A DNA stretch of 64,000 nt from Candidatus Schekmanbacteria bacterium (GCA_016235675.1 JACRJN010000131.1:1779-65778); one strand, 5' to 3'; positions 4,772 through 62,660 are shown, counted from the first letter of the stretch. Numbers and translations: made by a program. The notes: generated by a model from the letters alone, not told the origin.

Positions 4772-5323
4772 ATGCAGGGTTTGGCGATAAAGCAAAAAAA
4801 ATATACTTATCAGGACTATTTAAAAACCCCGGACGATATGCGGTATGAACTAATTGAGGGAGATTTAATAATGACACCGGCGCCATATATTCGACACCAA
4901 AGAATTTCCAGTAACTTGTTTTTCAAGATGAGAGATTTCACAAGCACCAATAATTTAGGCGAGGTTTTTTACGCTCCCTGCGATGTCTACTTAGACGATG
5001 AGAATGTTGTTCAGCCGGATATACTCTTCGTTTCCAAGGAGCGTCTGGAAATTATCACGGAAAAGAATATCCAGGGTGCGCCGGATTTGGTAGTGGAAAT
5101 TGTTTCGGAAGGAAATGCTTACCGGGACACCATACAGAAAAAAAGACTATACGCCCGTTTCGGGGTGAAAGAATATTGGATAGTGGCACCGGGGGAAAAG
5201 ATGATCGAACAATATCATTTGAATAAGCAGGGTTACCAATTGATTAGGACTTATTATCATGAGGATCATCTCATATCCCAGGAATTGCAGGATTTCACGA
5301 TTGAATTGAGGGAGGTTTTTTAA
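4772..5323 (+). CDS. Uma2 (DUF820) family putative endonuclease
   Basis: 183 aa with a strong RBS. It is a paralogue of the truncated ORF at 1..262. Confidence 0.7.
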   Translation: MQGLAIKQKKYTYQDYLKTPDDMRYELIEGDLIMTPAPYIRHQRISSNLFFKMRDFTSTNNLGEVFYAPCDVYLDDENVVQPDILFVSKERLEIITEKNIQGAPDLVVEIVSEGNAYRDTIQKKRLYARFGVKEYWIVAPGEKMIEQYHLNKQGYQLIRTYYHEDHLISQELQDFTIELREVF

Positions 5324-5327
5324 AAAA

Positions 5328-5387
5328 TGTAGTTACCTGATTTATCAGGGAACGGCCTGCTGGTACCCGATAAATCGGGTAACTACA
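5328..5387. repeat. Family I REPIN-like element (outer stem GTAGTTACC/GGTAACTAC, inner hairpins CCTGATTTATCAGG and CCCGATAAATCGGG)
   Basis: The palindromic structure is directly visible. A second copy lies at 25116..25173. Confidence 0.85.
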
Positions 5388-5415
5388 AATGGCAGCATAA
5401 CACAGGAGGAATAAA

Positions 5416-6816
5416 ATGCCGAAAGAATACCGAACTGTGGCCTCGGTTTCCGGACCGTTGATTTTAGTGGACAAGGTAGAAAGCATTAAATACGAAGAAC
5501 TGGTGGAAGTGGAACTGCCCGGCGAACAAATCCGTCTGGGCAAGGTACTGGAGGTCTCAGGAAATACCGCCCTGGTGCAGCTTTTCGGTACATCTACCGG
5601 CATCAATATCTATCAGAGCAAAATTCGCTTTCTGGGCAAGGGGATTGAACTGGGGGTTTCTCCCGATTTATTGGGACGGATTTTCGACGGCCTGGGACGC
5701 CCGATCGACAATGGCCCGCGCATTATCCCGGAAAAACGCCTGAACATCAACGGGAATCCGATCAACCCCTATGCCCGCGATTATCCCTCGGAGTTTATCC
5801 AGACCGGTATTTCCACCATCGACGGCCTAAATACACTGGTGCGCGGACAAAAATTGCCCATCTTCTCAGGTGCCGGTCTCCCGCACTCCCAAATGGCGGC
5901 CCAAATCGCCCGTCAATCCAAGGTTTTGGGCAAGGAAGAAGCCTTTGCCGTGGTCTTTGCCGCCATGGGCATCACCTTTGAGGAATACGAGTTTTTCCGC
6001 CAAGATTTCCAGAAATCCGGTGCGCTGGAACGCTCGGTGCTGTTCGTCAATCTGGCCAATGACCCGGCGGTAGAACGCATCGCCACCCCGCGAATGGCCC
6101 TGACCGCCGCTGAATATCTGGCATTTGAGAAGGATATGCACGTTCTGGTTATCTTAACCGATCTGACCAATTATTGCGAAGCCCTGCGCGAGGTTTCCGC
6201 CGCCCGCAAGGAAATACCCGGTCGCCGCGGTTATCCCGGTTACATGTATACCGACCTGTCCACGATTTATGAACGCGCCGGACGCATCAAGGGCAAAAAG
6301 GGATCGATCACCCAGATTCCCATTCTTACCATGCCGGAAGATGACAAAACCCATCCCATCCCGGATTTGACCGGTTATATTACCGAGGGACAAATTATCC
6401 TGGGACGGGCGATGCACCGCAAAGGCATCTATCCCCCAATCGATGTCTTGCCGTGTCTTTCCCGCTTGCGGGATAAAGGCATCGGCGAGGGCAAGACCAG
6501 GGAAGACCACGCCGGCTGGTCGAATCAATTGTTTGCCGCCTATGCCAGGGGTAAAGAGTCTGAAGAATTGGCGGTTATATTGGGTGAATCGGCTCTATCG
6601 GCAGCCGATAAAACCTTCCTTAAATTCGCCCTGGAATTTGAGCGGCGGTTTGTACAGCAAGGGGCCTATGAAGACCGGGCTATCGAGGAAACTTTGGCTA
6701 TCGGCTGGGAATTAATGGCGGCACTTCCGAAAGCCGAACTCAAACGGGTGAAAGAGGATCATATCGCTAAATATATGCCGGCGGGGAAAGAATTAGGCTT
6801 GAGGCTTGAGGCCTGA
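5416..6816 (+). CDS. atpB: V/A-type ATP synthase subunit B
   Basis: 466 aa with conserved regulatory B-subunit blocks, preceded by a strong RBS (CAGGAGG). Confidence 0.95.
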
Positions 6817-6927
6817 GGCTTGAGTAATGAGATTTGAGGTAAAATCACAGGCAGGATGCCTGTGCTACCGTAGGGCGAATTTGTATTCGCCCTCTTTCCC
6901 TCAAGCCTCAAGTCTCAAGCCTTTTTA
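6796..6927. repeat. Composite palindrome: GAGGCTTGAGGCCTGAGGCTTGAG heptamer-like arms enclosing a family C hairpin
   Basis: Arms at 6800..6830 and 6895..6925 are reverse complements. The internal 'cacaggcaggatgcctgtgctacc' is a family C hairpin. The element sits between the convergent atpB and PHP genes and is a likely terminator. Confidence 0.75.
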
Positions 6928-7571
6928 TTACAGCGATGAACCAAATTTCGGGCATTAACCCAAATTTGCTCTATCTGGGACTCGGTCAGCCCTGCGCCGA
7001 TGGCTACTTTAATGGCTTGTTCCTGCGAAATGAGGTCATCCGGTTCATGAGAGTCGGTATCAAGTATTAAAGAAGCATCTGATTTTGCGGCCAACTTGGC
7101 CACATGGCCGTTTGTCAGGGAATGTCCCTTACGGCTGGTAATTTCCAGAAAAATATGACGCTTTGCCGCCAAACGGACGTCTTCTTCGCTGATCAAACCC
7201 GGATGCGCCAATATATCGATGTCGGATTTTAAGGCATAATGATTGGTGCCAGGAACAACCGGCTCGGCTATGGTTTCCCCATGGACAACGATAATTTTAG
7301 CGCCCAGGGAGCGGGCACGGTACGCCAGATCGGGGATGAGCTTAGGCGGAACATGCGTTAATTCTATGCCGGGGATAGCGGTTATTTCCCAATGCTGATT
7401 AGCGGTTTGACAGGCTTGAATAATACGCGGGATTACAAATTCCAGGTTGGACGGATCGGCATGATCGGTCAAAGCGATGGCTTTATAGCCTTTAACGACG
7501 GCGTGGCGTATCAATTCCATCGGAAGGAGAACGCCGTCACTGAACAAAGAATGGGTATGAAAATCAAACAT
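6915..7571 (-). CDS. PHP-domain (histidinol-phosphatase-like) metal-dependent phosphoesterase
   Basis: 'MFDFHTHSLFSDG' and 'ALTDHAD' are PHP-domain motifs. Confidence 0.7.
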   Translation of the reverse strand: MFDFHTHSLFSDGVLLPMELIRHAVVKGYKAIALTDHADPSNLEFVIPRIIQACQTANQHWEITAIPGIELTHVPPKLIPDLAYRARSLGAKIIVVHGETIAEPVVPGTNHYALKSDIDILAHPGLISEEDVRLAAKRHIFLEITSRKGHSLTNGHVAKLAAKSDASLILDTDSHEPDDLISQEQAIKVAIGAGLTESQIEQIWVNARNLVHRCNKKA

Positions 7572-16007: not shown

Positions 16008-16115
16008 TTCACTTAACGTAGCGCAGGGCTTTAGCCCTGCTTATGGGGTGGCTTCGGCGGGAACGAAGGAGCAGACCTAAAGGTCTGCACTACGTTAAGT
16101 GAACAGTCTTTAATT
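16008..16115. repeat. Family A REPIN-like element (GTAGCGCAGGGCTTTAGCCCTGC / GCAGACCTTTAGGTCTGCGCTAC, outer CTGTTCACTTAA TIR)
   Basis: Other copies lie at 16876..16951, 21590..21828, 57137..57265 and 59815..59985. Confidence 0.85.
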
Positions 16116-16237: not shown

Positions 16238-16335
16238 ATTCGTAGCACGGGGGTTTATCCCCCGTTTGCAGCGCCTGCTTACGGGAGATGAACTCCCGCG
16301 CTACATTAATCTTTGATAGCGAATTGGTATGAGTT
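16238..16335. repeat. Family H element (GTAGCG + GGGGTTTATCCCC / GGGGGATAAACCCCC hairpins)
   Basis: Related copies occur at 19150..19258 and 43470..43562. Confidence 0.75.
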
Positions 16336-18923
16336 TAAATAACAATATTAACCAGCTTTCCGCCGGCAACTATTACCTTGCGGATTGGCTTGCCTTGGAT
16401 AAATTCCCGGATGCGGGCATCTGATAAGGCGGATTGTTTGATCGTCTCTTCCCCCGCGTCTTTAGGCAGGTTGATCTTGCTGCGTAATTTGCCGTTAATC
16501 TGGATGACGACGGTGACCTCATCCTCGCTGGCGATGGCTTCATCGTAAACCGGCCAGGGCTGCTGGCTGATACTGGCGGGATAGCCCAATGTCCGCCACA
16601 ATTCCTCGCTGATATGGGGGGCGAAGGGGGCAAGCAGTAATAACACACTGCGTAAAGCCTCCTTCAAGACTAAATAAGCCTCATCATCCTTCGGTTCGAA
16701 CTGATAGAGGGTGTTGACCAGTTCCATCACGGCGCTGATGGCGGTGTTGAAGTGGAAGCGGTCTTCGATGTCCCGGCCTACCTTGCGGATGGTTTGATGC
16801 ACCCGGCAGCGCAATTGTTTGTTGGCCGGGGTCAACTGGACGGGAATCAGATCATTGCCGATCGCCGTCAATTTTTCACCTGAAGATGTCGTAGCGCAGG
16901 GCTTTAGCCCTGCCTCCCCGGTAGCAGACCTAAAGGTCTGCGCTACATGTTTATTGTTCTTGGTATCCCGAAGAGACATAGGTGTTTCGGCATAGGTATT
17001 GACCAGCCGCCAGACCCGTTGCAGGAAGCGGTAAGAGCCTTCCACCCCTTCCTCGCTCCAATCCAAATCCTTTTCCGGCGGGGCGGCAAACAAGGAAAAG
17101 AGGCGCGCCGTGTCTGCTCCGTACTTTTCCAGCAAATCATTGGGATCAACTACATTACCCTTGGATTTGCTCATCTTCGCCCCATCCTTGATAACCATGC
17201 CTTGAGTAAGCAGGTTAGTGAAGGGTTCGTCATAAGTCAAGTAGCCCAAATCACGCAAAACTTTGTTGAAAAAGCGGGCATAAAGTAAGTGCAGCACGGC
17301 ATGTTCGATCCCGCCCACATATTGATCCACCGGCAGCCAGTAATTGACCGCTTTTTCATCAAAAGCGGCATTAGTTAACCGGGGAGATGTGTAGCGGGCA
17401 AAGTACCAGGAGGATTCGACAAAGGTATCCAGGGTATCGGTCTCCCGTTTAGCCGGTTTACCGCAGGCCGGACAGTCGGTATTGACGAATTCGGCGATCG
17501 AAGGCAAAGGGGAATGGCCGTCTTCGGGAAATGCCGTATGGGTGGGCAGAACTATCGGTAACCGTTCCGCTTGCTCCGGAACGGTTCCGCAAGCATCGCA
17601 ATAAACTATCGGAATGGGCGCACCCCAGAAGCGCTGGCGGGAGATGCCCCAATCGCGCAGACGATAATTGACCTTACGGCAGCCGATCTCGGCCTTCTCC
17701 ATAAAATCGGCGATCGCTTCGCGGGCTTGTGGGCTGGTCAGGCCACTAAATTGACCGCTGTTGACCAGATTGCCATCGTCTACATAGGCTTCGGTCATTG
17801 TTTCCGCTTGCAATGCACCATCAGTGGGTTGAATTACCACCCGCAAGGGGATATTGTACTTGCGGGCGAATTCAAAATCCCGCTGGTCATGAGTGGGCAC
17901 AGCCATAACCGCCCCGGTGCCGTAACCCATCAGGACGAAGTTAGCCAGATAGACCGGAATATACTCCTGGGTCATCGGATTGAGGACGTAGCAGCCGCAG
18001 AATATGCCCTCCTTTTCCGGCTCCGCCTGACCGCGCTGCTGTACCCGGTGGCTTTTCTTGAAATTCTCCACAAAGATTTGTAACGTTTCAGGATTTGGGC
18101 AATGCTGTCTGATTATGTCCACTAAAGGGTGTTCGGGGGAAATGGAAACAAAGGTAGCGCCGAAAATAGTATCGACACGGGTGGTAAAGACGGTCAGCGA
18201 TTCGCCTAAGCCTTTGAGTGGAAACTTGATCTCCATCCCCTGGCTTTTGCCGATCCAGTTGCGCTGCATCATTAATACCTTTTCCGGCCAGCCGGGTAGC
18301 TGATCAGTAAACTTGAGCAGTTCGTCGGCATAGGCGGTGATGCGGAAAAACCAGCTTTCCATCGCCCGCGGCTCAACCACACTGGAACAGCGCCAGCACA
18401 AGCCCTCCTCCACCTGCTCGTTAGCCAGAACGGTCTGGCAGGAAGGGCACCAGTTGACCGGGGAAAGCTTTTTGTAGACCAACCCCTTCTCATACATCTG
18501 CAAGAAGAATTGCTGCTCCCAGCGGTAATAATCCGGCAGACAAGTCGCCAATTCCCTATGCCAGTCGTAGCTATAACCCATTCGTTTCAATTGACCGCGC
18601 ATATAATCGATATTGCTTGCCGTCCATTTGGCCGGATGGCTCTTATGGGCAATGGCCGCATTCTCCGCCGGCAGCCCGAAAGCGTCCCACCCCATCGGAT
18701 GCAGAACGTTAAAGCCCTTCATCCTCTTGTAACGGGCGATCACATCCCCGATCGAGTAATTACGCACATGCCCCATATGAATCCGCCCGGAGGGATAGGG
18801 AAACATCTCCAATAAGTAGTATTTGGGAAGATTAGGGTCTTCCGTCACCCGGAAAATCCGCTCCCTCTCCCAATACTCCTGCCATTTGGCCTCGATTTCT
18901 TTATGCTGATAATGCTGATTCAT
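16335..18923 (-). CDS. leuS: Leucine--tRNA ligase
   Basis: 862 aa with HMGH ('HMGHVRNY') and KMSKS motifs. It contains an in-frame family A repeat at 16876..16951. Confidence 0.95.
16876..16951. repeat. Family A REPIN-like element embedded in-frame in leuS
   Basis: 'gtagcgcagggctttagccctgcctccccggtagcagacctaaaggtctgcgctac' lies inside the leuS reading frame. It is translated as '..[21 protein letters not shown]..'. Confidence 0.85.
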
Positions 18924-19116
18924 TTATTTCTCCGTAACTAACTTTAATTGTTTTTCTCGCCCAACGGATAGCGTCCTCAATATCTTCCTCTTTAATGCCA
19001 AGTGATGCGATTTTATTTCTGATGTTTTCTATCGTTATTTTAGCGGATTGATCCGGCAACATTTTCATGCCTCCTCCAATATAAACATTATAATAGCATT
19101 TAAAGGCAATGATCAC
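18901..19116 (-). CDS. Small hypothetical protein upstream of leuS
   Basis: 71-aa ORF overlapping the leuS start; no recognisable domain. It may not be a real gene. Confidence 0.2.
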
Positions 19117-19149
19117 AAGTAGAACATTGACAAGTAACCGATTGGGAAT

Positions 19150-19258
19150 TATAATTTATTATGCTTTAATGTCGCGTTGGGGTTTATCCCCAACAGCAGA
19201 CGCAGGAACCTTGCAGCGGAAGCGGGGGATAAACCCCCGCGCTACGTTCAGGAGAGAC
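19150..19258. repeat. Family H element
   Basis: 'gttggggtttatccccaac...gcgggggataaacccccgcgctacg' is visible here. Confidence 0.75.
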
Positions 19259-19261
19259 AGT

Positions 19262-20287
19262 ATGGCATATCACTTCAGAAATCTGGTTTTCGAGGGCGGC
19301 GGCGTTAAAGGAATAGCTTATGTGGGGGCAATGAAGGTTTTGGAGAGCAAGGGAATTCTGCCGGACATCGTCAGGGTCGGCGGAGCATCGGCAGGGGCGA
19401 TCAATGCCCTGCTTGCCGGTCTGAATTATACACCGACTGAGGTAAAGCAAATCCTGGGCGATCTTGATTTCAAAAATTTCATGGATGATGATTTCGGGGT
19501 GGTGCGCGATACCGATCGTTTGATCTCCGAATTCGGCTGGTACAAGGGCGATTTCTTCCGCAATTGGGCAGCCCGGCTGATCCGGGACAAGACCGGTGAC
19601 AGCGAATCGACTTTTGACAAGGTAGCATCATTAAAGGAGAGCCGAAGGTTTAAGGATATTTATTTTATGGGCGCCAATTTATCGACTGGTTTTTCGGAGG
19701 TGTTTTCCGCTGAGCATACCCCCAAAAAGCGTGTGGCCGACGCTCTGCGGATTTCCATGTCTATCCCCTTGTTTTTCAAGGCTGTTCGGAGTGACAGAGG
19801 CGATGTCTATGTGGACGGCGGGTTGTTGGACAATTATCCGGTAAAGCTTTTCGACCGCCAGAAATATATCGACCAATTCTCGCTCAACACCGATTACTAT
19901 GACGAACACAACAAGCAATTAAAGGCTCAGGGCAGGCAAATAAGCCCTTACGTTTATAATAAAGAGACCTTGGGTTTTCGCCTGGATACCGCCAAGGAAA
20001 TTGCGATATTTCGGAATCAGGCCGAACCGGAGCATAAGAAAATTAAAGATTTTTTCGATTACGCCTGGGGGTTGGTGGATACCATTATGGAAAGCCAGCA
20101 GAGCCAGCATTTGCATGGCGATGATTGGCAACGCAGCGTTTATATCGATAGCCTGGGGGTCAAGACCACCGACTTTAATCTCAGCGACAAGAAAAAGGCA
20201 GAATTGGAAGATTCCGGGAGGAAAGGGGCGGAGATTTATTTTAAGTGGTATGATGATCCGGACAGTACTCCGGTGAATCGCCCGTAA
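19262..20287 (+). CDS. Patatin-like phospholipase
   Basis: Has 'GGGVKG', 'GASAG' (GxSxG) and 'DGG' motifs. An ATG at 19262 with a CAGGAGAG RBS was chosen because the tracked upstream start lies in the repeat. Confidence 0.8.
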   Translation: MAYHFRNLVFEGGGVKGIAYVGAMKVLESKGILPDIVRVGGASAGAINALLAGLNYTPTEVKQILGDLDFKNFMDDDFGVVRDTDRLISEFGWYKGDFFRNWAARLIRDKTGDSESTFDKVASLKESRRFKDIYFMGANLSTGFSEVFSAEHTPKKRVADALRISMSIPLFFKAVRSDRGDVYVDGGLLDNYPVKLFDRQKYIDQFSLNTDYYDEHNKQLKAQGRQISPYVYNKETLGFRLDTAKEIAIFRNQAEPEHKKIKDFFDYAWGLVDTIMESQQSQHLHGDDWQRSVYIDSLGVKTTDFNLSDKKKAELEDSGRKGAEIYFKWYDDPDSTPVNRP

Positions 20288-21589: not shown

Positions 21590-21828
21590 TATTAAGACGT
21601 AGCGCAGGGCTTTAGCCCCAATACTGTTCCCCTAACGTAGCGCAGACCTTTAGGTCTGCTCCGGAGTGCTCACAAAGCCACCCCATAAGCAGGGATAGAA
21701 GCCCTGCGCTACGTCTTAAGTGAACGGTATTGGCTTTAGCCCTGCTTCCGGACACACATCAAACCCGGTAGCCGGTAGCAGACCTAAAGGTCTGCACTAC
21801 GTTAGGGGAACAGTAAAGGGGCGGCTAT
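21590..21828. repeat. Two interleaved family A REPIN-like elements
   Basis: The GTAGCGCAGGGCTTTAGCCC / GCAGACCTTTAGGTCTGC units are repeated twice with CTTAAGTGAACAG outer repeats. Confidence 0.8.
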
Positions 21829-22093
21829 GACTAAATCAGCTTTATTCTCTTATCTTGAAGGATATAAGCTGGCTGATAAAATCATTAAAAAGGAAAAAAA
21901 ACAGCGGCTTTCTCAAATGACGTTTGAAGAATCCTTGCTTGAGTTTAATAACCTTTGCCTAACCTGGGAATCAGTTTCCAACAAAGAAGGAATGGATAAT
22001 TTGGAAAAGCGAAAAATTACCTTCCTTATCGAACAAAGAGCTCGCTTAGATAAAGCCGGCAGCCGGAAAGTGAAAAATGAATCAATACGCTAA
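21827..22093 (+). CDS. Hypothetical small protein, putative partner of the downstream nucleotidyltransferase
   Basis: 88 aa; its stop overlaps the next ORF by 17 nt. Confidence 0.35.
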   Translation: MTKSALFSYLEGYKLADKIIKKEKKQRLSQMTFEESLLEFNNLCLTWESVSNKEGMDNLEKRKITFLIEQRARLDKAGSRKVKNESIR

Positions 22094-22652
22094 AGCTATC
22101 GATGAATTGCATGAATTTTTTGACCGGGAGGGAATATCTTATGCCATTATTGGAGGCATTGCTCTACAATATTGGGGAGAGCCTCGTTTTACCAGAGATA
22201 TAGACGTCACCGTTCTGGTTGATTTAGGTAAAGATGAAATAATCCTGCAAAAAATTCTTTCTGTATTCACGCCCCGCATCTCTGATGCCTTGAAATTTGC
22301 CCTGCAAAATCGTGTTTGTTTGGTTAGAAGCCGGGATGGGATCGAAATAGACATTTCTCTGGGTATTCCCGGATACGAAGAGAAAATGATGGGGCGTACG
22401 GTAGAATGTAATCTGGGCGGCAGCTATAATGTTAAGATTTGCTCGGCGGAAGACCTGATCATTCATAAAGCCGTCGCCGGAAGACCGCAGGATTTAGCTG
22501 ATATTGAGAGCATAATAATGCGCCAGGGTGAAAAATTGGATGAAGCATATATCCGTTTTTGGTTGGATGAGTTTTCTCTCTTGCTTGAAACCAAAGAAGT
22601 ATTGGAGCGGTTCGAAAATCCCTGGCGGCGGTTGCTTGGGGAAGATGAATAA
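22077..22652 (+). CDS. Nucleotidyltransferase-fold protein (pol-beta superfamily)
   Basis: 'IIGGIALQYWGEPRFTRDIDVTV' matches the hG[GS]...DxD nucleotidyltransferase motif. Confidence 0.5.
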   Translation: MNQYAKAIDELHEFFDREGISYAIIGGIALQYWGEPRFTRDIDVTVLVDLGKDEIILQKILSVFTPRISDALKFALQNRVCLVRSRDGIEIDISLGIPGYEEKMMGRTVECNLGGSYNVKICSAEDLIIHKAVAGRPQDLADIESIIMRQGEKLDEAYIRFWLDEFSLLLETKEVLERFENPWRRLLGEDE

Positions 22653-29866: not shown

Positions 29867-29950
29867 CTTTGGTAGCACAGGCTTCCCATCCTGTGACACA
29901 GGCAAGATGCCTGTGCTACCGGAGGCAGGGATAAAGCCCTGCGCTACGAC
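29867..29950. repeat. Family C/A hybrid GTAG element
   Basis: 'ggtagcacaggcttcccatcctgtgacacaggcaagatgcctgtgctaccgg..cagggataaagccctgcgctacg'. Confidence 0.75.
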
Positions 29951-34640: not shown

Positions 34641-35851
34641 TATGCCGTAATCAATTCGGCTAATTGAGCCACATTCTTTCTAATATCAAAAGATTCGCAA
34701 ACCCTTTGCCGCCCGGCTTTTCCTAACCTTTGGCGCAAATCCGGGTCGTGATATAGTTTTTTAATCGCCTCCTTCAAGGCCAAAACATCTGCGGGAGGAA
34801 CGATTAGCCCGGTTTCCATATTATGCACCAATTCGGGAATAGCGGAAATATCGGTTGAGATTACCGGCACTTCCAATGCCAGCGCTTCGATAAATACGTT
34901 GGGAAGGCCATCCTGCCGGTTACCGTTGAGTGTAACGCAAGGCAGGACAAAGACATCAGCCGACTTCATCTTTTCAATTACCTGAGGATGAGGCAAATGA
35001 TTGCTGATTTTCACCCGGTCACCTAATTGATATTTTCGGTGCAAGGCGATTATTTCCTCTTTGGCCGGGCCGTTTCCGCCGATAATCTCCGCACTAAATT
35101 CCATCCCTTCTTTTTTCAGCAGATGAAGCGCTTCGATTAAATATTTGAACCCCTTCTTTTCCACCATCCGCCCAACCGCCAGGATATTGAATTTCCCGTT
35201 GCTTCTACTCCCAAGAGGCTGATAATGATTGGGGTTCAATCCATGATAATTTACCTTAATTTTATCGGCAAAGCCGTTTTCACATAAAGTAATTAAATAT
35301 TTCTGATTAAATTGTGTACAGGTAACCATACATTTGGCTTTTTTAATCTTCTGCCGCAACCCATATGTATCTACAAAAATATCCCAGGCATGACCGGTAA
35401 AGGAAAATCCCAACCCTAAAAGCCGGGCGATTATCATGGCGCTTGCCGTAGAAGTCGTCGCCCAATGGGCATGGATATAGCGAATATTTTGTTCCTCGAT
35501 AAGTTTAGCGTAATAAACAGATTTTGGGAAGATAGCCAACGCCCTAAGGATAAAAGCTAACTCGTTAGAATTGGTAAAAAGTTCTTTTAAGACGGCTAGA
35601 TATTGCTTGGGTTTTTTCGCAAGATAATAAATATGCGCCCATAAAATCTTTAAGGATAACAGGTAGGGGCTGTAATAAACCGGCCTTTTCAGTTGATTTA
35701 ATAACGGATAATTTTTCTCCAAATCAGCCAGTTTTTTCCCCAAGGCAAATATATGTAAATCAATTCCCTGATTGGCTAATTCCAGCATCTCCCGCAGAAT
35801 AAATTCCGATCCCAGAGATGTGTTGATATAAGCTATCTTTTGTTTTGCCAT
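34640..35851 (-). CDS. Glycosyltransferase family 4
   Basis: GT-B fold with an 'EGLPNVFIEALA'-type motif. Confidence 0.8.
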   Translation of the reverse strand: MAKQKIAYINTSLGSEFILREMLELANQGIDLHIFALGKKLADLEKNYPLLNQLKRPVYYSPYLLSLKILWAHIYYLAKKPKQYLAVLKELFTNSNELAFILRALAIFPKSVYYAKLIEEQNIRYIHAHWATTSTASAMIIARLLGLGFSFTGHAWDIFVDTYGLRQKIKKAKCMVTCTQFNQKYLITLCENGFADKIKVNYHGLNPNHYQPLGSRSNGKFNILAVGRMVEKKGFKYLIEALHLLKKEGMEFSAEIIGGNGPAKEEIIALHRKYQLGDRVKISNHLPHPQVIEKMKSADVFVLPCVTLNGNRQDGLPNVFIEALALEVPVISTDISAIPELVHNMETGLIVPPADVLALKEAIKKLYHDPDLRQRLGKAGRQRVCESFDIRKNVAQLAELITA

Positions 35852-37412
35852 CTAACTTCCTTCTTTGGTAGCACAGGCTGGAAGCACATGACACAGGCTG
35901 GAAGCCTGTGTTACCGGATGCAGGGCTGAAGCCCTGCGCTACACTTTTTTGCCTCCCGGTTAAAAGCCTCCCTTTAGCTTTAACAGTAATTCCGGCCATG
36001 ATCCAAAAATAAGCCGTTAATTCATTGGAAAAAAAGCGCGCTCCCGATAAATCCAATAAAAACAGGGCGATGACACAACCCAGTAGCCCGCCGGCCAGCG
36101 CCTTAATGTAGGGATCGTCCGTCTGGCGCATTACCTGCCGGGCACTAAAAAAAACAGCCGCCAAAATCCATAAATACAAAATTAACCCGACGATTCCTTC
36201 CTCGACTGCAATCCAAATAAACGAACTATGAGCCGCTTTGGGAAACGGAAGCACCCCACATCTGACCACCACTTCCTGGAATGTTTCAAAACCCGTACCC
36301 AAGATGGGGGCTTCGGCCATCATCCGCGGCAATCCTTTCCACTGGCGTAGCCTCAATTCTGTGGAATTATCGTATTGCTGATTTTCATATTTTCCCTGCA
36401 CCCCTTCTTCCAGAAAGGTATCGTCTACCCGTTCTTCTACCGCCGGCGGCGGATGCACCAAGATCACAACTAAAGCCAACAACATAAATAAAAGCAGGCG
36501 CTTATCTTTAACCAGTCCCAGGAACAAAAGACTGGCCAAACAGGCCAGCCAGGAACCGCGGGATAAGGTGGTAAACAAGGCCAGAAAACATAAACCGGTA
36601 CCCGCTAAAAGCAGGTAATGCCGTTTGGAGGGCAGTTTCAGATATAAAGAGCAAATAAATAGCGGGGTATACATAGCCAGAAAGCCGCCATATAAATTAG
36701 GCTGATCCCCGATTACCCCGCCTCCGTTTCTGTTCCGCTCGATATAATCCGCTATTCGAAAAAAATCTTTTAACGAAAGTATTACGATAATTCCGATCGT
36801 TACTAAAAGAAAAATCAACAAACGGCGGCTATAATGCAAATCGTAAGATTTTAAGGTGATGAAATATAAAGAAACATAAATAAGCCAATTTTTAGCGACA
36901 CTTAAGCGTTCAACATCCGAACAATACGCGGAAGGCATCCTGAAAATGGATAATAAAGTAAAAAATACAAGCAGATAAACAGGTATTTTTAACGGATCGC
37001 ATCTCGAATTTTCTTGCGGCTGCTTTTGGGAAAACACGCCAAGAAATAAAATGGCCACAATAATAGTTTGGGCGTTTATTCCGGTTATGCCGAAAAAATC
37101 AGGGGGAAAGAGGTCTAAAATCGGCATAAAAAAGATAAAAAAACAAACCGCTAAATCGATTCTTACAAAGGCCAAATAAGTCCAAAAAATACCCAGGGAA
37201 AACCCTAAGAAAATCTTTACCGGATAATAAGGCAAAAATATCGCGCAAATTACCGCCGCCACAAGAACCGATAAACTTGTTTTTTCAAACCGATCAACCG
37301 AAGAGACATCAGATTTGCCGGATGTTTCGGTTGGATTTAAATAATTTAATTGATACACAGGTGAAGTGTCCACAACTTTCCTCAGTGCTATGAAATACGA
37401 CAAAACTCCCAT
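35760..37412 (-). CDS. O-antigen ligase / polymerase (Wzy-like) polytopic membrane protein
   Basis: About 10 TM helices and a large periplasmic loop. The ORF reads through the repeat at 35865..35945 and ends inside the next gene. An internal start near 37412 is preferred. Confidence 0.6.
   Translation of the reverse strand: MGVLSYFIALRKVVDTSPVYQLNYLNPTETSGKSDVSSVDRFEKTSLSVLVAAVICAIFLPYYPVKIFLGFSLGIFWTYLAFVRIDLAVCFFIFFMPILDLFPPDFFGITGINAQTIIVAILFLGVFSQKQPQENSRCDPLKIPVYLLVFFTLLSIFRMPSAYCSDVERLSVAKNWLIYVSLYFITLKSYDLHYSRRLLIFLLVTIGIIVILSLKDFFRIADYIERNRNGGGVIGDQPNLYGGFLAMYTPLFICSLYLKLPSKRHYLLLAGTGLCFLALFTTLSRGSWLACLASLLFLGLVKDKRLLLFMLLALVVILVHPPPAVEERVDDTFLEEGVQGKYENQQYDNSTELRLRQWKGLPRMMAEAPILGTGFETFQEVVVRCGVLPFPKAAHSSFIWIAVEEGIVGLILYLWILAAVFFSARQVMRQTDDPYIKALAGGLLGCVIALFLLDLSGARFFSNELTAYFWIMAGITVKAKGRLLTGRQKSVAQGFSPASGNTGFQPVSCASSLCYQRRKLDGKTKDSLYQHISGIGIYSAGDAGISQSGN
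35865..35945. repeat. Family C/A hybrid GTAG element, translated at the 3' end of the Wzy-like ORF
   Basis: 'ggtagcacaggctggaagcacatgacacaggctggaagcctgtgttaccggatgcagggctgaagccctgcgctac'. Confidence 0.8.
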
Positions 37413-38842
37413 AACCGGTACAAGCGCGCCTTTTCCTGGGCGGCAAAAAAACCGCTCAGCCAAAGTAATACGGGAAACAAAAGAATTAACATGCACTTAT
37501 AAGCGATAGCCACGCTTATTGCTTCAATATTAATCAGTACCCCCGCCAAATATAAAGCTAAGCTAATCGCTATTAATTTGATGATACGACCAAATTCATA
37601 TCTGACAGGATAAAGCTTCATCGAAAGAACGACTATCATAATAAATTGAAAAATATAGGCCAGCAACGTCGCATAAGCCGCCCCCATCATCCCAAAAGAT
37701 GGGATCCAAAGAAAATTCAATCCGACATTCAACAGCGCAGCAATTCCTACAGCCGTGCTGAAATATGAAGTTTTACTCTTCAAATATACACCGACCGCCA
37801 CTACATTGAACAGCCCGTAAAATAACTGGGATAGGGCAATGATCGGAATCACCCGGTAAGCCTCTAAAAATTTAGGCGTGGTGGCTAAAATAATAATTTC
37901 CCTGGCCAATATCGATAAGGACAGGCAGACAAAGGACATTATCGCAAAAAAATAAGTGCTGGTTTTGGAATATAACTCGTTGGCATTTGGCGATTTTTCG
38001 TTGGAAAACACAAATTGCGGCCAGGCCAGTTGAAAAGCCCAGGCCAGAAACCACAGAATTTCCCCGAATCTATAGCCTAATGAATAGATACCCACTTGAT
38101 CCAGCGTACTATACATTTTTAACATGTATCTGTCCGACAGGGTTAAGATTATCCCGCCGATGCCGGAGAAGATTAAGGGAACGCCGAACCGCAGCAGACT
38201 TTTTGCTTCGGTTAAAGAAAACCGAAAAGGCACATCCCTTAAAATCCAGGGGATAAGAATGAGGCAAACTAACAAACCGGCCAGGCATTGACTGATTAAA
38301 ATCCCCCAGAACCCTTTTTTAAATGCCACTACTAAAAAAATAGTCAATAACAAGGTAAAACCGGTATCGGATAAAGTCAGTACGGCATATTTCTTCGATT
38401 CGCCTTGCGCCCGCAGGCAGGAAAAAGGGATTTTGGCCAATTGGGAAAAAACACCGGTTAAAGACACGATGATCACGGCATTGGCATAAACCGGGCTTCC
38501 CAGCAACAATCTGGAAATCCCGGCTGAATTAACAATAATAATGCCCATCACCGGCAGAGAAATCAGCAGCATTATAAATCCGGAGGTGCTTAAAACCAGG
38601 TTTTTCCCCTCCGGTGTCTCGGCCTTAAAATAATTTTTAAATATGGCGCTGCTCATCCCCAGGTTTAAAAATATAAACAAAAAGGAGCCGAACAGGGAAC
38701 ATAAAGACAAGATTCCATAATCCGCGGGCGTCAGATAACGGGTATAAAGCGGAATCAGCAAAAATCCCACTATTTTCCCGGCGGTATTTCCTAAAACATA
38801 GAAAATACTATCGGAAAATAATTTTTTAATTTTGGAAAACAT
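37388..38842 (-). CDS. Polysaccharide flippase (Wzx, MOP superfamily)
   Basis: 484 aa with about 12 TM helices and an N-terminus typical of polysaccharide biosynthesis protein family members. Confidence 0.75.
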   Translation of the reverse strand: MFSKIKKLFSDSIFYVLGNTAGKIVGFLLIPLYTRYLTPADYGILSLCSLFGSFLFIFLNLGMSSAIFKNYFKAETPEGKNLVLSTSGFIMLLISLPVMGIIIVNSAGISRLLLGSPVYANAVIIVSLTGVFSQLAKIPFSCLRAQGESKKYAVLTLSDTGFTLLLTIFLVVAFKKGFWGILISQCLAGLLVCLILIPWILRDVPFRFSLTEAKSLLRFGVPLIFSGIGGIILTLSDRYMLKMYSTLDQVGIYSLGYRFGEILWFLAWAFQLAWPQFVFSNEKSPNANELYSKTSTYFFAIMSFVCLSLSILAREIIILATTPKFLEAYRVIPIIALSQLFYGLFNVVAVGVYLKSKTSYFSTAVGIAALLNVGLNFLWIPSFGMMGAAYATLLAYIFQFIMIVVLSMKLYPVRYEFGRIIKLIAISLALYLAGVLINIEAISVAIAYKCMLILLFPVLLWLSGFFAAQEKARLYRLWEFCRIS

Positions 38843-57136: not shown

Positions 57137-57265
57137 GGTTCACTTAAGACGTAGCGCAGGGCTTTAGCCCTGCTTATGGCGGCTTTGGTAGGCACTCCGG
57201 AGCAGACCTAAAGGTCTGCTCTACGTTAAGTGAACAGTCTGCGCTACGTTAAGTGAACAGTATTG
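57137..57265. repeat. Family A REPIN-like element with a duplicated right end
   Basis: 'cttaagacgtagcgcagggctttagccctgc..gcagacctaaaggtctgctctacgttaagtgaacag' is followed by a second 'gcgctacgttaagtgaacag'. Confidence 0.8.
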
Positions 57266-59814: not shown

Positions 59815-60062
59815 GGCGGGGGTTTCCCCCAATGCTGTTGACTTAAGACGTAGCGCAGGGCTTTAGCCCTGCTTAAGACGCGGCATTTGACCCCTGTGGC
59901 TGTAGCAGACCTAAAGGTCTGCGCTACATAAACATCAAAACAAAATTCCTTAAGTCAACAGCATTGGGGGTTTCCCCGCCCTTTAATTAACTTAAGCCGT
60001 AGCCGTAGTGCCAGGGCTTTAGCCCTGGAAATTCAGCCCTAAAGGGCTTTAGACTACGAAAT
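59815..60062. repeat. Family A element nested within a CAATGCTGTTGACTTAAG inverted pair, followed by a family B element
   Basis: Outer 'gggggtttcccccaatgctgttgacttaag' is mirrored by 'cttaagtcaacagcattgggggtttcccc'. The family B copy lies at 59995..60062. Confidence 0.8.
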
Positions 60063-62226: not shown

Positions 62227-62282
62227 GGGAAATTTTGAAACACTCAAAAATATATACAAACCGACAATATTATGCTATACTT

Positions 62283-62660
62283 TAAAAATTATGGGGGCGA
62301 CTGGTTTCGACGGGGCTATTGAACCTCCAACTGCATGTCGAGCATTCTACTGACTCGTAAATCCGGTGGAAAAACAATAAACGCAAACTACTATGGCGAA
62401 AGCCAATTAGCTTTAGCCGCCTAATTAGTGCGGCTTCGTCCACCCTGCTTCGCTGATGGAGCGGGATGTGGGCGGCATATACATCAGATAGCGGATCCGC
62501 TTCGCCTAAGGGCGGACGAGCGAAACTACACTTTGGCTGGCCTTTCTTTGATCCTGCCGCCGGGAGCGGAAAGAGGCGAGAAACAATCCAGCGGCTAAAC
62601 ATGTAGAAGTTGCCGGCAAGGTACTCTCGGACGCGGGTTCGATTCCCGCCGCCTCCACCA
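62283..62660 (+). ncRNA. ssrA: tmRNA (SsrA)
   Basis: 5' GGGGGCGACUGGUUUCGACGGGG pairs with 3' ..CGCCUCCACCA, including a G3:U70 wobble. A T-arm GGGUUCGAUUCCC is present. The tag ORF GCA AAC TAC TAT GGC GAA AGC CAA TTA GCT TTA GCC GCC TAA encodes ANYYGESQLALAA. Confidence 0.85.

Follow-up and report, generated by a model that had tools for sequence, protein, structure and literature searches.

Rickettsia palindromic elements (RPEs), which Ogata and colleagues reportedly described in 2000, are said to lie in frame in genes that stay functional, where they add surface peptide segments to the products. Repetitive extragenic palindromic sequences (REPs) that carry a GTAG or a CGTC tag have been found wholly inside open reading frames (ORFs) of known proteins (Di Nocera, De Gregorio & Rocco 2013, BMC Genomics 14:522, PMC3733652). 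That study defines the GTAG REP unit as an unpaired tag at one end plus a short stem-loop that compensating base changes maintain, with a stem of 5-13 bp and a loop of 2-20 nt, and notes that RPEs end in CGTC. Intragenic GTAG REP dimers encode 20-30 aa, with tRNA synthetase genes among their targets, and the authors propose that such inserts are neutral and lie in loops or linkers (PMC3733652). Here, we describe a doublet of GTAG REPs inside leuS, the gene for leucyl-tRNA synthetase (LeuRS), in a 64,000-nt stretch of a Candidatus Schekmanbacteria genome (GCA_016235675.1, JACRJN010000131.1:1779-65778), hereafter called the window. It is quite probable, in our view, that the GTAG-tagged doublet landed in leuS and is translated in frame as a neutral, tolerated loop.

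The features of the locus, in positions counted from the first letter of the window, are as follows.

16335..18923, minus strand: intact leuS ORF, 862 aa, 100% identical to an NCBI leucine--tRNA ligase

16878..16988, minus strand: lineage-specific in-frame insertion of 111 nt, LeuS residues 646-682 (37 aa)

16877..16890, no strand: left part of the insert, CACCTGAAGATGTC, with a loose likeness to the outer arm TTCACTTAAGAC that lacks statistical support

16891..16913, plus strand: REP half-site 1, GTAGCGCAGGGCTTTAGCCCTGC, with GTAG tag and GCAGGGC/GCCCTGC hairpin, 0 mismatches to the family pattern

16914..16923, no strand: spacer of 10 nt between the half-sites (28-32 nt in other window copies)

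16924..16946, minus strand: REP half-site 2, GTAGCGCAGACCTTTAGGTCTGC, with GTAG tag and GCAGACC/GGTCTGC hairpin, 0 mismatches

16947..16988, no strand: right part of the insert, 42 nt, unique in the data examined and ending in GACATAGGTG (16975-16984)

Alignment with orthologues identifies the insertion. Residues 646-682 stand opposite gaps in 14 of 14 and in 118 of 118 aligned orthologues (61-72% identity), and none of the 118 varies in length at this site. The site reads TAT GAA AAA CTG in orthologue P0003 and TAC GCC GAT AAA CTG in orthologue P0002, while the window has TAT GCC GAA A[..111 nt..]AA TTG. The repeat core supplies 56 nt (19 codons) of the inserted DNA, the remainder consisting, on the plus strand, of 13 nt to the left of the core and 42 nt to its right. 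An earlier note, made from the sequence alone, had proposed a palindromic repeat in frame within leuS on the minus strand and read without a stop, which the sequence confirms. It had also proposed that an alignment would reveal a lineage-specific insertion carrying a member of a multi-copy family; indeed, the extra residues are absent from all 118 orthologues. Its measurements require correction: the element was placed at 16876-16951, where the repeat core occupies 16891-16946, and an insertion of ~25 aa exactly matching the repeat was expected, where 37 aa are present and the 55 nt outside the core match no other copy. The note was right that the leuS linker is enlarged, although not to the 'about 55' residues it gave, as the linker from RVWRLV to VHQTI measures 66 aa here and 29 aa in P0003.

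The two half-sites are inverted with respect to each other, with GTAG on the outside, and form a head-head dimer (16891-16946). Both are perfect copies of the 23-nt consensus GTAGCGCAG-NN-CTTTAG-NN-CTGC, which would fit a recent insertion. The 23-nt arms of the doublet are 83% complementary, and each arm is also a perfect 8-bp hairpin. The core folds as one hairpin at -33 kcal/mol; for the insert as a whole, the folding energy is -44.3 kcal/mol (z = -5.2). When the window was searched for the pattern GTAGCGCAGNNCTTTAGNNCTGC with up to three mismatches, 13 matches were obtained, against 0.00 expected from 100 shuffles. More generally, the window holds 53 GTAG-tagged hairpins (2.7 in shuffles), which belong to seven or more sequence types, and the leuS pair alone lies deep inside a gene; the other full doublets are all located between ORFs. 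Examples of the hairpin types are GTAGGGTGGGCTGCGCCCACC, GTAGCACAGGCATCTTGCCTGTG, GTAGTCCCAGCCCTTTAGGGCTG, GTAGTGCCAGGGCTTTAGCCCTGG, GTAGCGCGGGGGTTTATCCCCCGC and GTAGTTACCTGATTTATCAGGTA. An intron or known structured RNA within the insert was considered and rejected, Rfam returning only chance-level matches (E at least 0.04). The Rfam model Acido-Lenti-1 (RF01687) scores the half-sites at 16.6 and 18.9 bits, below its 37-bit gathering threshold, and 15 REP-bearing loci yielded no match at the Rfam gathering thresholds.

Of the three frames on each strand, just one crosses the core without a stop, and leuS reads the core in the one that is open on its own strand, as would be expected if an essential gene retains only insertions that do no harm. 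The protein otherwise resembles a working enzyme. The NCBI ligase to which it is identical is a protein of a Candidatus Schekmanbacteria metagenome-assembled genome (MAG); E. coli LeuRS is matched at E = 8e-269, and the catalytic motifs HMGH (residue 49) and KMSKS (residue 583) are kept. The next best LeuS proteins among 5.8 billion clusters are 824-828 aa long and only 67-72% identical, and therefore the data contain no close relative. An AlphaFold2 model built from 119 sequences has a mean pLDDT (predicted local distance difference test) of 82.4, and Foldseek aligns it with the E. coli and N. gonorrhoeae enzymes at template modelling (TM) scores of 0.80-0.83. Identity to the nearest orthologues falls from 74-76% upstream of the insert to 64-67% downstream; insert-free orthologues compared with one another show a similar fall, from 78-80% to 71-76%. 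As far as these identities go, the part downstream of the insert shows no decay, and the enzyme features look intact in sequence and model; the protein is presumably active. As a separate observation, this LeuS and its relatives do not have ~38 residues of E. coli LeuRS (chain positions 597-635), near residues 579-585; the missing segment appears to be the leucine-specific insertion domain.

In the model, residues 647-679 have pLDDT values below 50, with block means of ~33, between confidently predicted helices at 624-645 and 681-687/699-722. The 37-residue insert would be a surface loop, probably a disordered one to judge from these values. In Pfam, the last catalytic hits stop near residue 628, and Anticodon_1 begins at residue 704 (664 in P0003). 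Because of these borders and the flanking helices, the insert is predicted to lengthen the connector where the catalytic and anticodon-binding domains join, rather than to separate the anticodon-binding and C-terminal domains as had been suggested before. The equivalent connector of E. coli LeuRS comprises ~12 residues (chain positions 700-713 of 3zgz).

These features may be combined into a mechanism. A dimer resembling a REPIN (REP doublet forming hairpins), made of two inverted 23-nt hairpin units in head-head arrangement, would have entered leuS at the short inter-helix connector of the catalytic/anticodon-binding junction. The copying enzyme would presumably be the genome's REP-associated tyrosine transposase (RAYT), which would mobilise REPs of the GTAGCGCAGGGC type. 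Since the insert is divisible by three in length and is read in the sole open frame, translation of the mRNA would run straight through it. The outcome would be a 37-residue loop that the enzyme tolerates, a neutral passenger that passed purifying selection and not an adaptation. The stable mRNA hairpin could affect translation or decay, and there is no indication of selection for it.

The other family copies in the window, with which the leuS insert is compared below, are the following.

16018..16093, no strand: intergenic full copy just 3' of leuS, with outer arms GTTCACTTAAC / GTTAAGTGAAC

57151..57224, no strand: intergenic full copy found as a pattern match

59850..59927, no strand: intergenic full copy, the closest in detail to the leuS copy, with ..GTAGCAGACC.. 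and ..GCGCTACAT..

21599..21800, no strand: intergenic cluster of ~200 nt with nested or rearranged copies, including a truncated half-site and one doublet within another

Further family sites lie at 29925-29947 and 35920-35942. On the leuS contigs of the nearest relatives (L112-L114), no GTAG REP families were found, and these contigs therefore carry no information on the age of the family.

A number of observations weigh against the reading of the insert as a translated, tolerated REP doublet. Sequence comparison does not trace 55 of the 111 inserted nt to the element. Pairing between the flanks, with a folding-energy difference (ddG) of -11.3 kcal/mol, is equalled in 101 of 1000 shuffles of the flanks. 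Both the 5-bp inverted repeat at the ends of the insert and the duplicated TTT, described below, were noticed post hoc. The insertion is known from one MAG contig, and neither an independent assembly, nor a closer relative (the nearest being 72% identical), nor an empty-site allele was found. Indeed, the predicted empty site CCTATGCCGAAAAATTGACGGCG and the occupied junction AACAATAAACATGTAGCGCAGACC each had 0 matches in a metagenome scan, and an exact-protein lookup of the window LeuS returned no record and hence no independent contig. A 48-aa synthetic query for the repeat-encoded peptide gave five candidates, none of which scored; as it missed even the window's own protein, this result carries no information. 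Finally, neither Pfam on 10 ORFs nor tblastn found a RAYT in the 64-kb window; this last result is likewise uninformative, since RAYTs are usually single-copy and just 64 kb are visible.

The single contig, with no second assembly on record, leads to the question as to whether a multi-copy repeat was wrongly threaded into leuS during short-read MAG assembly, all the more so as 53 GTAG hairpins crowd 64 kb and repeats are the classical cause of misassembly. A repeat misjoin would, however, link different loci, whereas leuS is colinear on both sides and has lost no residue. Furthermore, the added DNA measures exactly 111 nt, keeps the frame, is stop-free in the sole open frame and includes 55 nt of unique, non-repeat DNA, which leaves an artefact very improbable. 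With only 64 kb of the genome visible, it might also be argued that this leuS is disabled or decaying and that a second, intact leuS elsewhere supplies the activity. We see a very slight chance of this, as the ORF is open over 862 aa with its catalytic motifs intact, the model is confident outside the insert, and the divergence after the insert is within the range seen among insert-free orthologues. The stable fold of core and insert (-33 and -44.3 kcal/mol, z = -5.2) and the perfect consensus of both half-sites could instead point to co-option, in which the mRNA hairpin tunes LeuRS expression or decay, or the loop alters binding of tRNA or a partner; many REPs have been argued to act as RNA elements (PMC3733652). 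Recent insertion, however, accounts equally well for perfect half-sites, the insert is predicted to be disordered and is unique to one genome, leaving no conservation to assess, and the other family copies are ordinary intergenic REPs. Co-option is accordingly rated as quite improbable.

A more serious competitor concerns the history of the insert, namely that an extra loop of ~18 aa came first and that a doublet of 56-58 nt (19 codons) entered it later. The core alone matches other copies, and the half-sites are perfect next to flanks that resemble nothing, as if the two differed in age or origin. The flanks (13 and 42 nt), compared by BLAST with the window and 111 loci, gave only chance matches of at most 13 nt. 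Their pairing had been entertained as evidence for terminal inverted repeats and was rejected, as it is at chance level both in the shuffles and among real leuS flanks, 81% of which also reach -11.3 kcal/mol. On the other hand, none of the 118 orthologues varies in length at the site, and the 56-nt core is no multiple of three. The ends of the insert are exactly CACCT/AGGTG, with ATGTC/GACAT adjoining, even though BLAST finds no likeness of the flanks to other copies; the CACCT that opens the left part is the reverse complement of 16980-16984. Both ends are loosely like the outer arms found in the intergenic copies, TTCACTTAAGAC|GTAG...CTAC|GTTAAGTGAA, and in the copy at 59850-59927 an additional ~21 nt separate CTAC from the outer arm, an asymmetric layout like that of the leuS copy. 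TTT occurs at 16874-16876 and again at 16985-16987, within a T-run, and bounds a possible 108-nt unit (16877-16984). The two-step history is thus a tentative alternative with less than an even chance. A single event appears slightly favoured over a 56-58-nt doublet entering an already lengthened loop; it would have brought in a composite of ~108 nt, consisting of outer arm, REP1, spacer, REP2, ~28 nt of extra DNA ATGTTTATTGTTCTTGGTATCCCGAAGA and outer arm.

A few window loci warrant mention in their own right. The cluster at 21599-21800 lies upstream of an ORF for an AbiEii-like nucleotidyltransferase (22077-22652). A Wzy_C (O-antigen ligase-like) ORF, 35760..37496 on the minus strand, is open through a REP cluster (35890-35942), and its frame extends for another 52 codons, overlapping the start of the next gene by ~90 nt; its C-terminal tail may be REP-derived. 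A GTAG hairpin of another family (19222-19245) falls within the 50 codons that open the longest patatin-like ORF, 19109..20287 on the plus strand. An internal Met lies ahead of the Pfam domain, which begins at residue 59; the hairpin is therefore probably part of the 5' leader and outside the protein. A tmRNA gene is present at 62293-62660 on the plus strand (Rfam RF00023, 194.9 bits), and the 106-aa ORF that overlaps it, 62282..62602 on the minus strand, is therefore probably spurious.

The family extends well beyond this genome. A scan for GTAGYGCAGRSCTTTAGSYCTGC that used one genome per GTDB species returned at least 111 stretches, and the exact matches listed span at least 12 phyla: Acidobacteriota (chiefly Vicinamibacterales), Desulfobacterales and other Deltaproteobacteria, Brocadiales, Zixibacteria, Margulisbacteria, WOR-3, Actinomycetota, Clostridia, Gemmatimonadota, Dehalococcoidia, Pseudomonadota and the PVC group. 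Among the matches listed (111 stretches and the window), there are 221 half-sites, which occur as 133 singletons and as 44 inverted doublets whose spacers measure 4-76 nt. GTAG heads both leuS half-sites and nearly all other copies in this set, and the outside of the doublet is GTAG...CTAC in the leuS copy as in 43 others. The stem is 7-8 bp and the loop TTTA/TT. The variable stem dinucleotides are complementary in 208 of the 221 half-sites, in seven pair types, and while they covary, GTAGCGCAG, the loop and CTGC remain invariant among the matches listed. The DNA outside GTAG...CTAC differs by genome, being CGTAC in Vicinamibacterales and TTCACTTAAG here.

A link to a RAYT is provided by a Terriglobia stretch (L035), which was found with a looser version of a RAYT regular expression after the strict version found nothing. 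Its ORF at 5874-6365 on the minus strand matches NCBIfam NF047646, 'REP-associated tyrosine transposase', at 100.8 bits (cutoff 80), as well as Pfam Y1_Tnp, and is flanked on both sides by hairpins of the family (5692-5719, 5858-5880 and 6416-6443). Within 5692-6950 of the same stretch, further family copies are clustered upstream of the RAYT gene. Long open frames across family copies elsewhere (nine, by Pfam) were set aside, as nearly all proved to be neighbouring genes fused by stop-poor, high-GC DNA; the single genuine-looking intragenic copy among the nine is in a kinase gene. In this Vicinamibacterales stretch (L111), a half-site at 5914-5936 on the minus strand lies in frame in the Ser/Thr kinase domain of an ORF at 5277-6239, also on the minus strand. 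The half-site falls where the protein, in its beta4-beta5 loop, is 8 residues longer than PknA. Towards its C-terminal end the ORF looks frameshifted, which may reflect a pseudogene or a long-read error.

Because of the base-for-base conservation outside the covarying stem, the RAYT in Terriglobia and the in-frame copies in LeuRS and the kinase, it could be proposed that the half-site GTAGCGCAG-NN-CTTTAG-NN-CTGC marks one pan-bacterial REP family and not a lineage-specific repeat. We consider this proposal doubtful. Were it true, one REP-RAYT system would either be undergoing horizontal spread or date back extremely far, against the prevailing picture of REPINs as vertically inherited and lineage-specific, and a pan-bacterial REP would repeatedly provide core proteins with new surface loops.

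The leuS locus offers a tidy natural experiment, in which an essential class I aminoacyl-tRNA synthetase carries 37 extra residues in a connector that does not vary in length among 118 relatives, and in which the added DNA is read in the one frame left open by a selfish palindromic repeat. It illustrates a route by which repeat-rich genomes can lengthen core proteins. The LeuRS site probably tolerates insertions, which would be useful for engineering.

Several described elements invite comparison with the leuS insert. With MITEs (transposable elements of the miniature inverted-repeat kind; PMC10969869), the family shares small size, lack of coding capacity and, in its intergenic copies, outer inverted arms. 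A 3-nt duplication is possible at the leuS site, albeit within a T-run, and neither it nor the terminal repeat of the leuS copy has statistical support; the core consists of GTAG REP hairpins and not of a deleted insertion sequence. The RPEs share a behaviour with the leuS insert, which is insertion in frame into a gene that stays open. The two have no sequence relationship, and the host, the presumed mobilising enzyme and the tag (CGTC in RPEs, GTAG here) all differ; hence, the parallel with Rickettsia drawn in the earlier note applies to behaviour and does not extend to membership.

The likeness to REPINs (Bertels & Rainey 2011, PMC3116915) is closer, as these too consist of two inverted REPs with a short spacer that form one long hairpin. 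The leuS arms, in contrast, carry differing stem variants (GGGC and GACC) and are 83% self-complementary. The family flanks a RAYT in the Terriglobia stretch, and none is visible in the leuS window. Furthermore, the REPIN-RAYT system is described as lineage-specific and vertically inherited, whereas the half-site of the leuS family spans many phyla.

The GTAG REPs (PMC3733652) provide the nearest match, sharing the tag, the short stem-loop, the multi-copy and mostly intergenic distribution, and the head-head dimers, which predominate there. That REPs are extragenic by definition, as the earlier note had it, is out of date, given that GTAG REPs wholly inside ORFs are listed there, as a minority of the units. 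The leuS target, this sequence family and the Schekmanbacteria phylum are absent from the tables of that study, and the literature searched did not yield the exact sequence of the half-site. The leuS doublet differs in being embedded in a longer insert of 111 nt. It is a further example of a documented phenomenon, that of in-frame intragenic REPs and RPEs, and leaves knowledge of REPs unchanged; of wider reach, and less expected, is that the repeat unit is identical across phyla.

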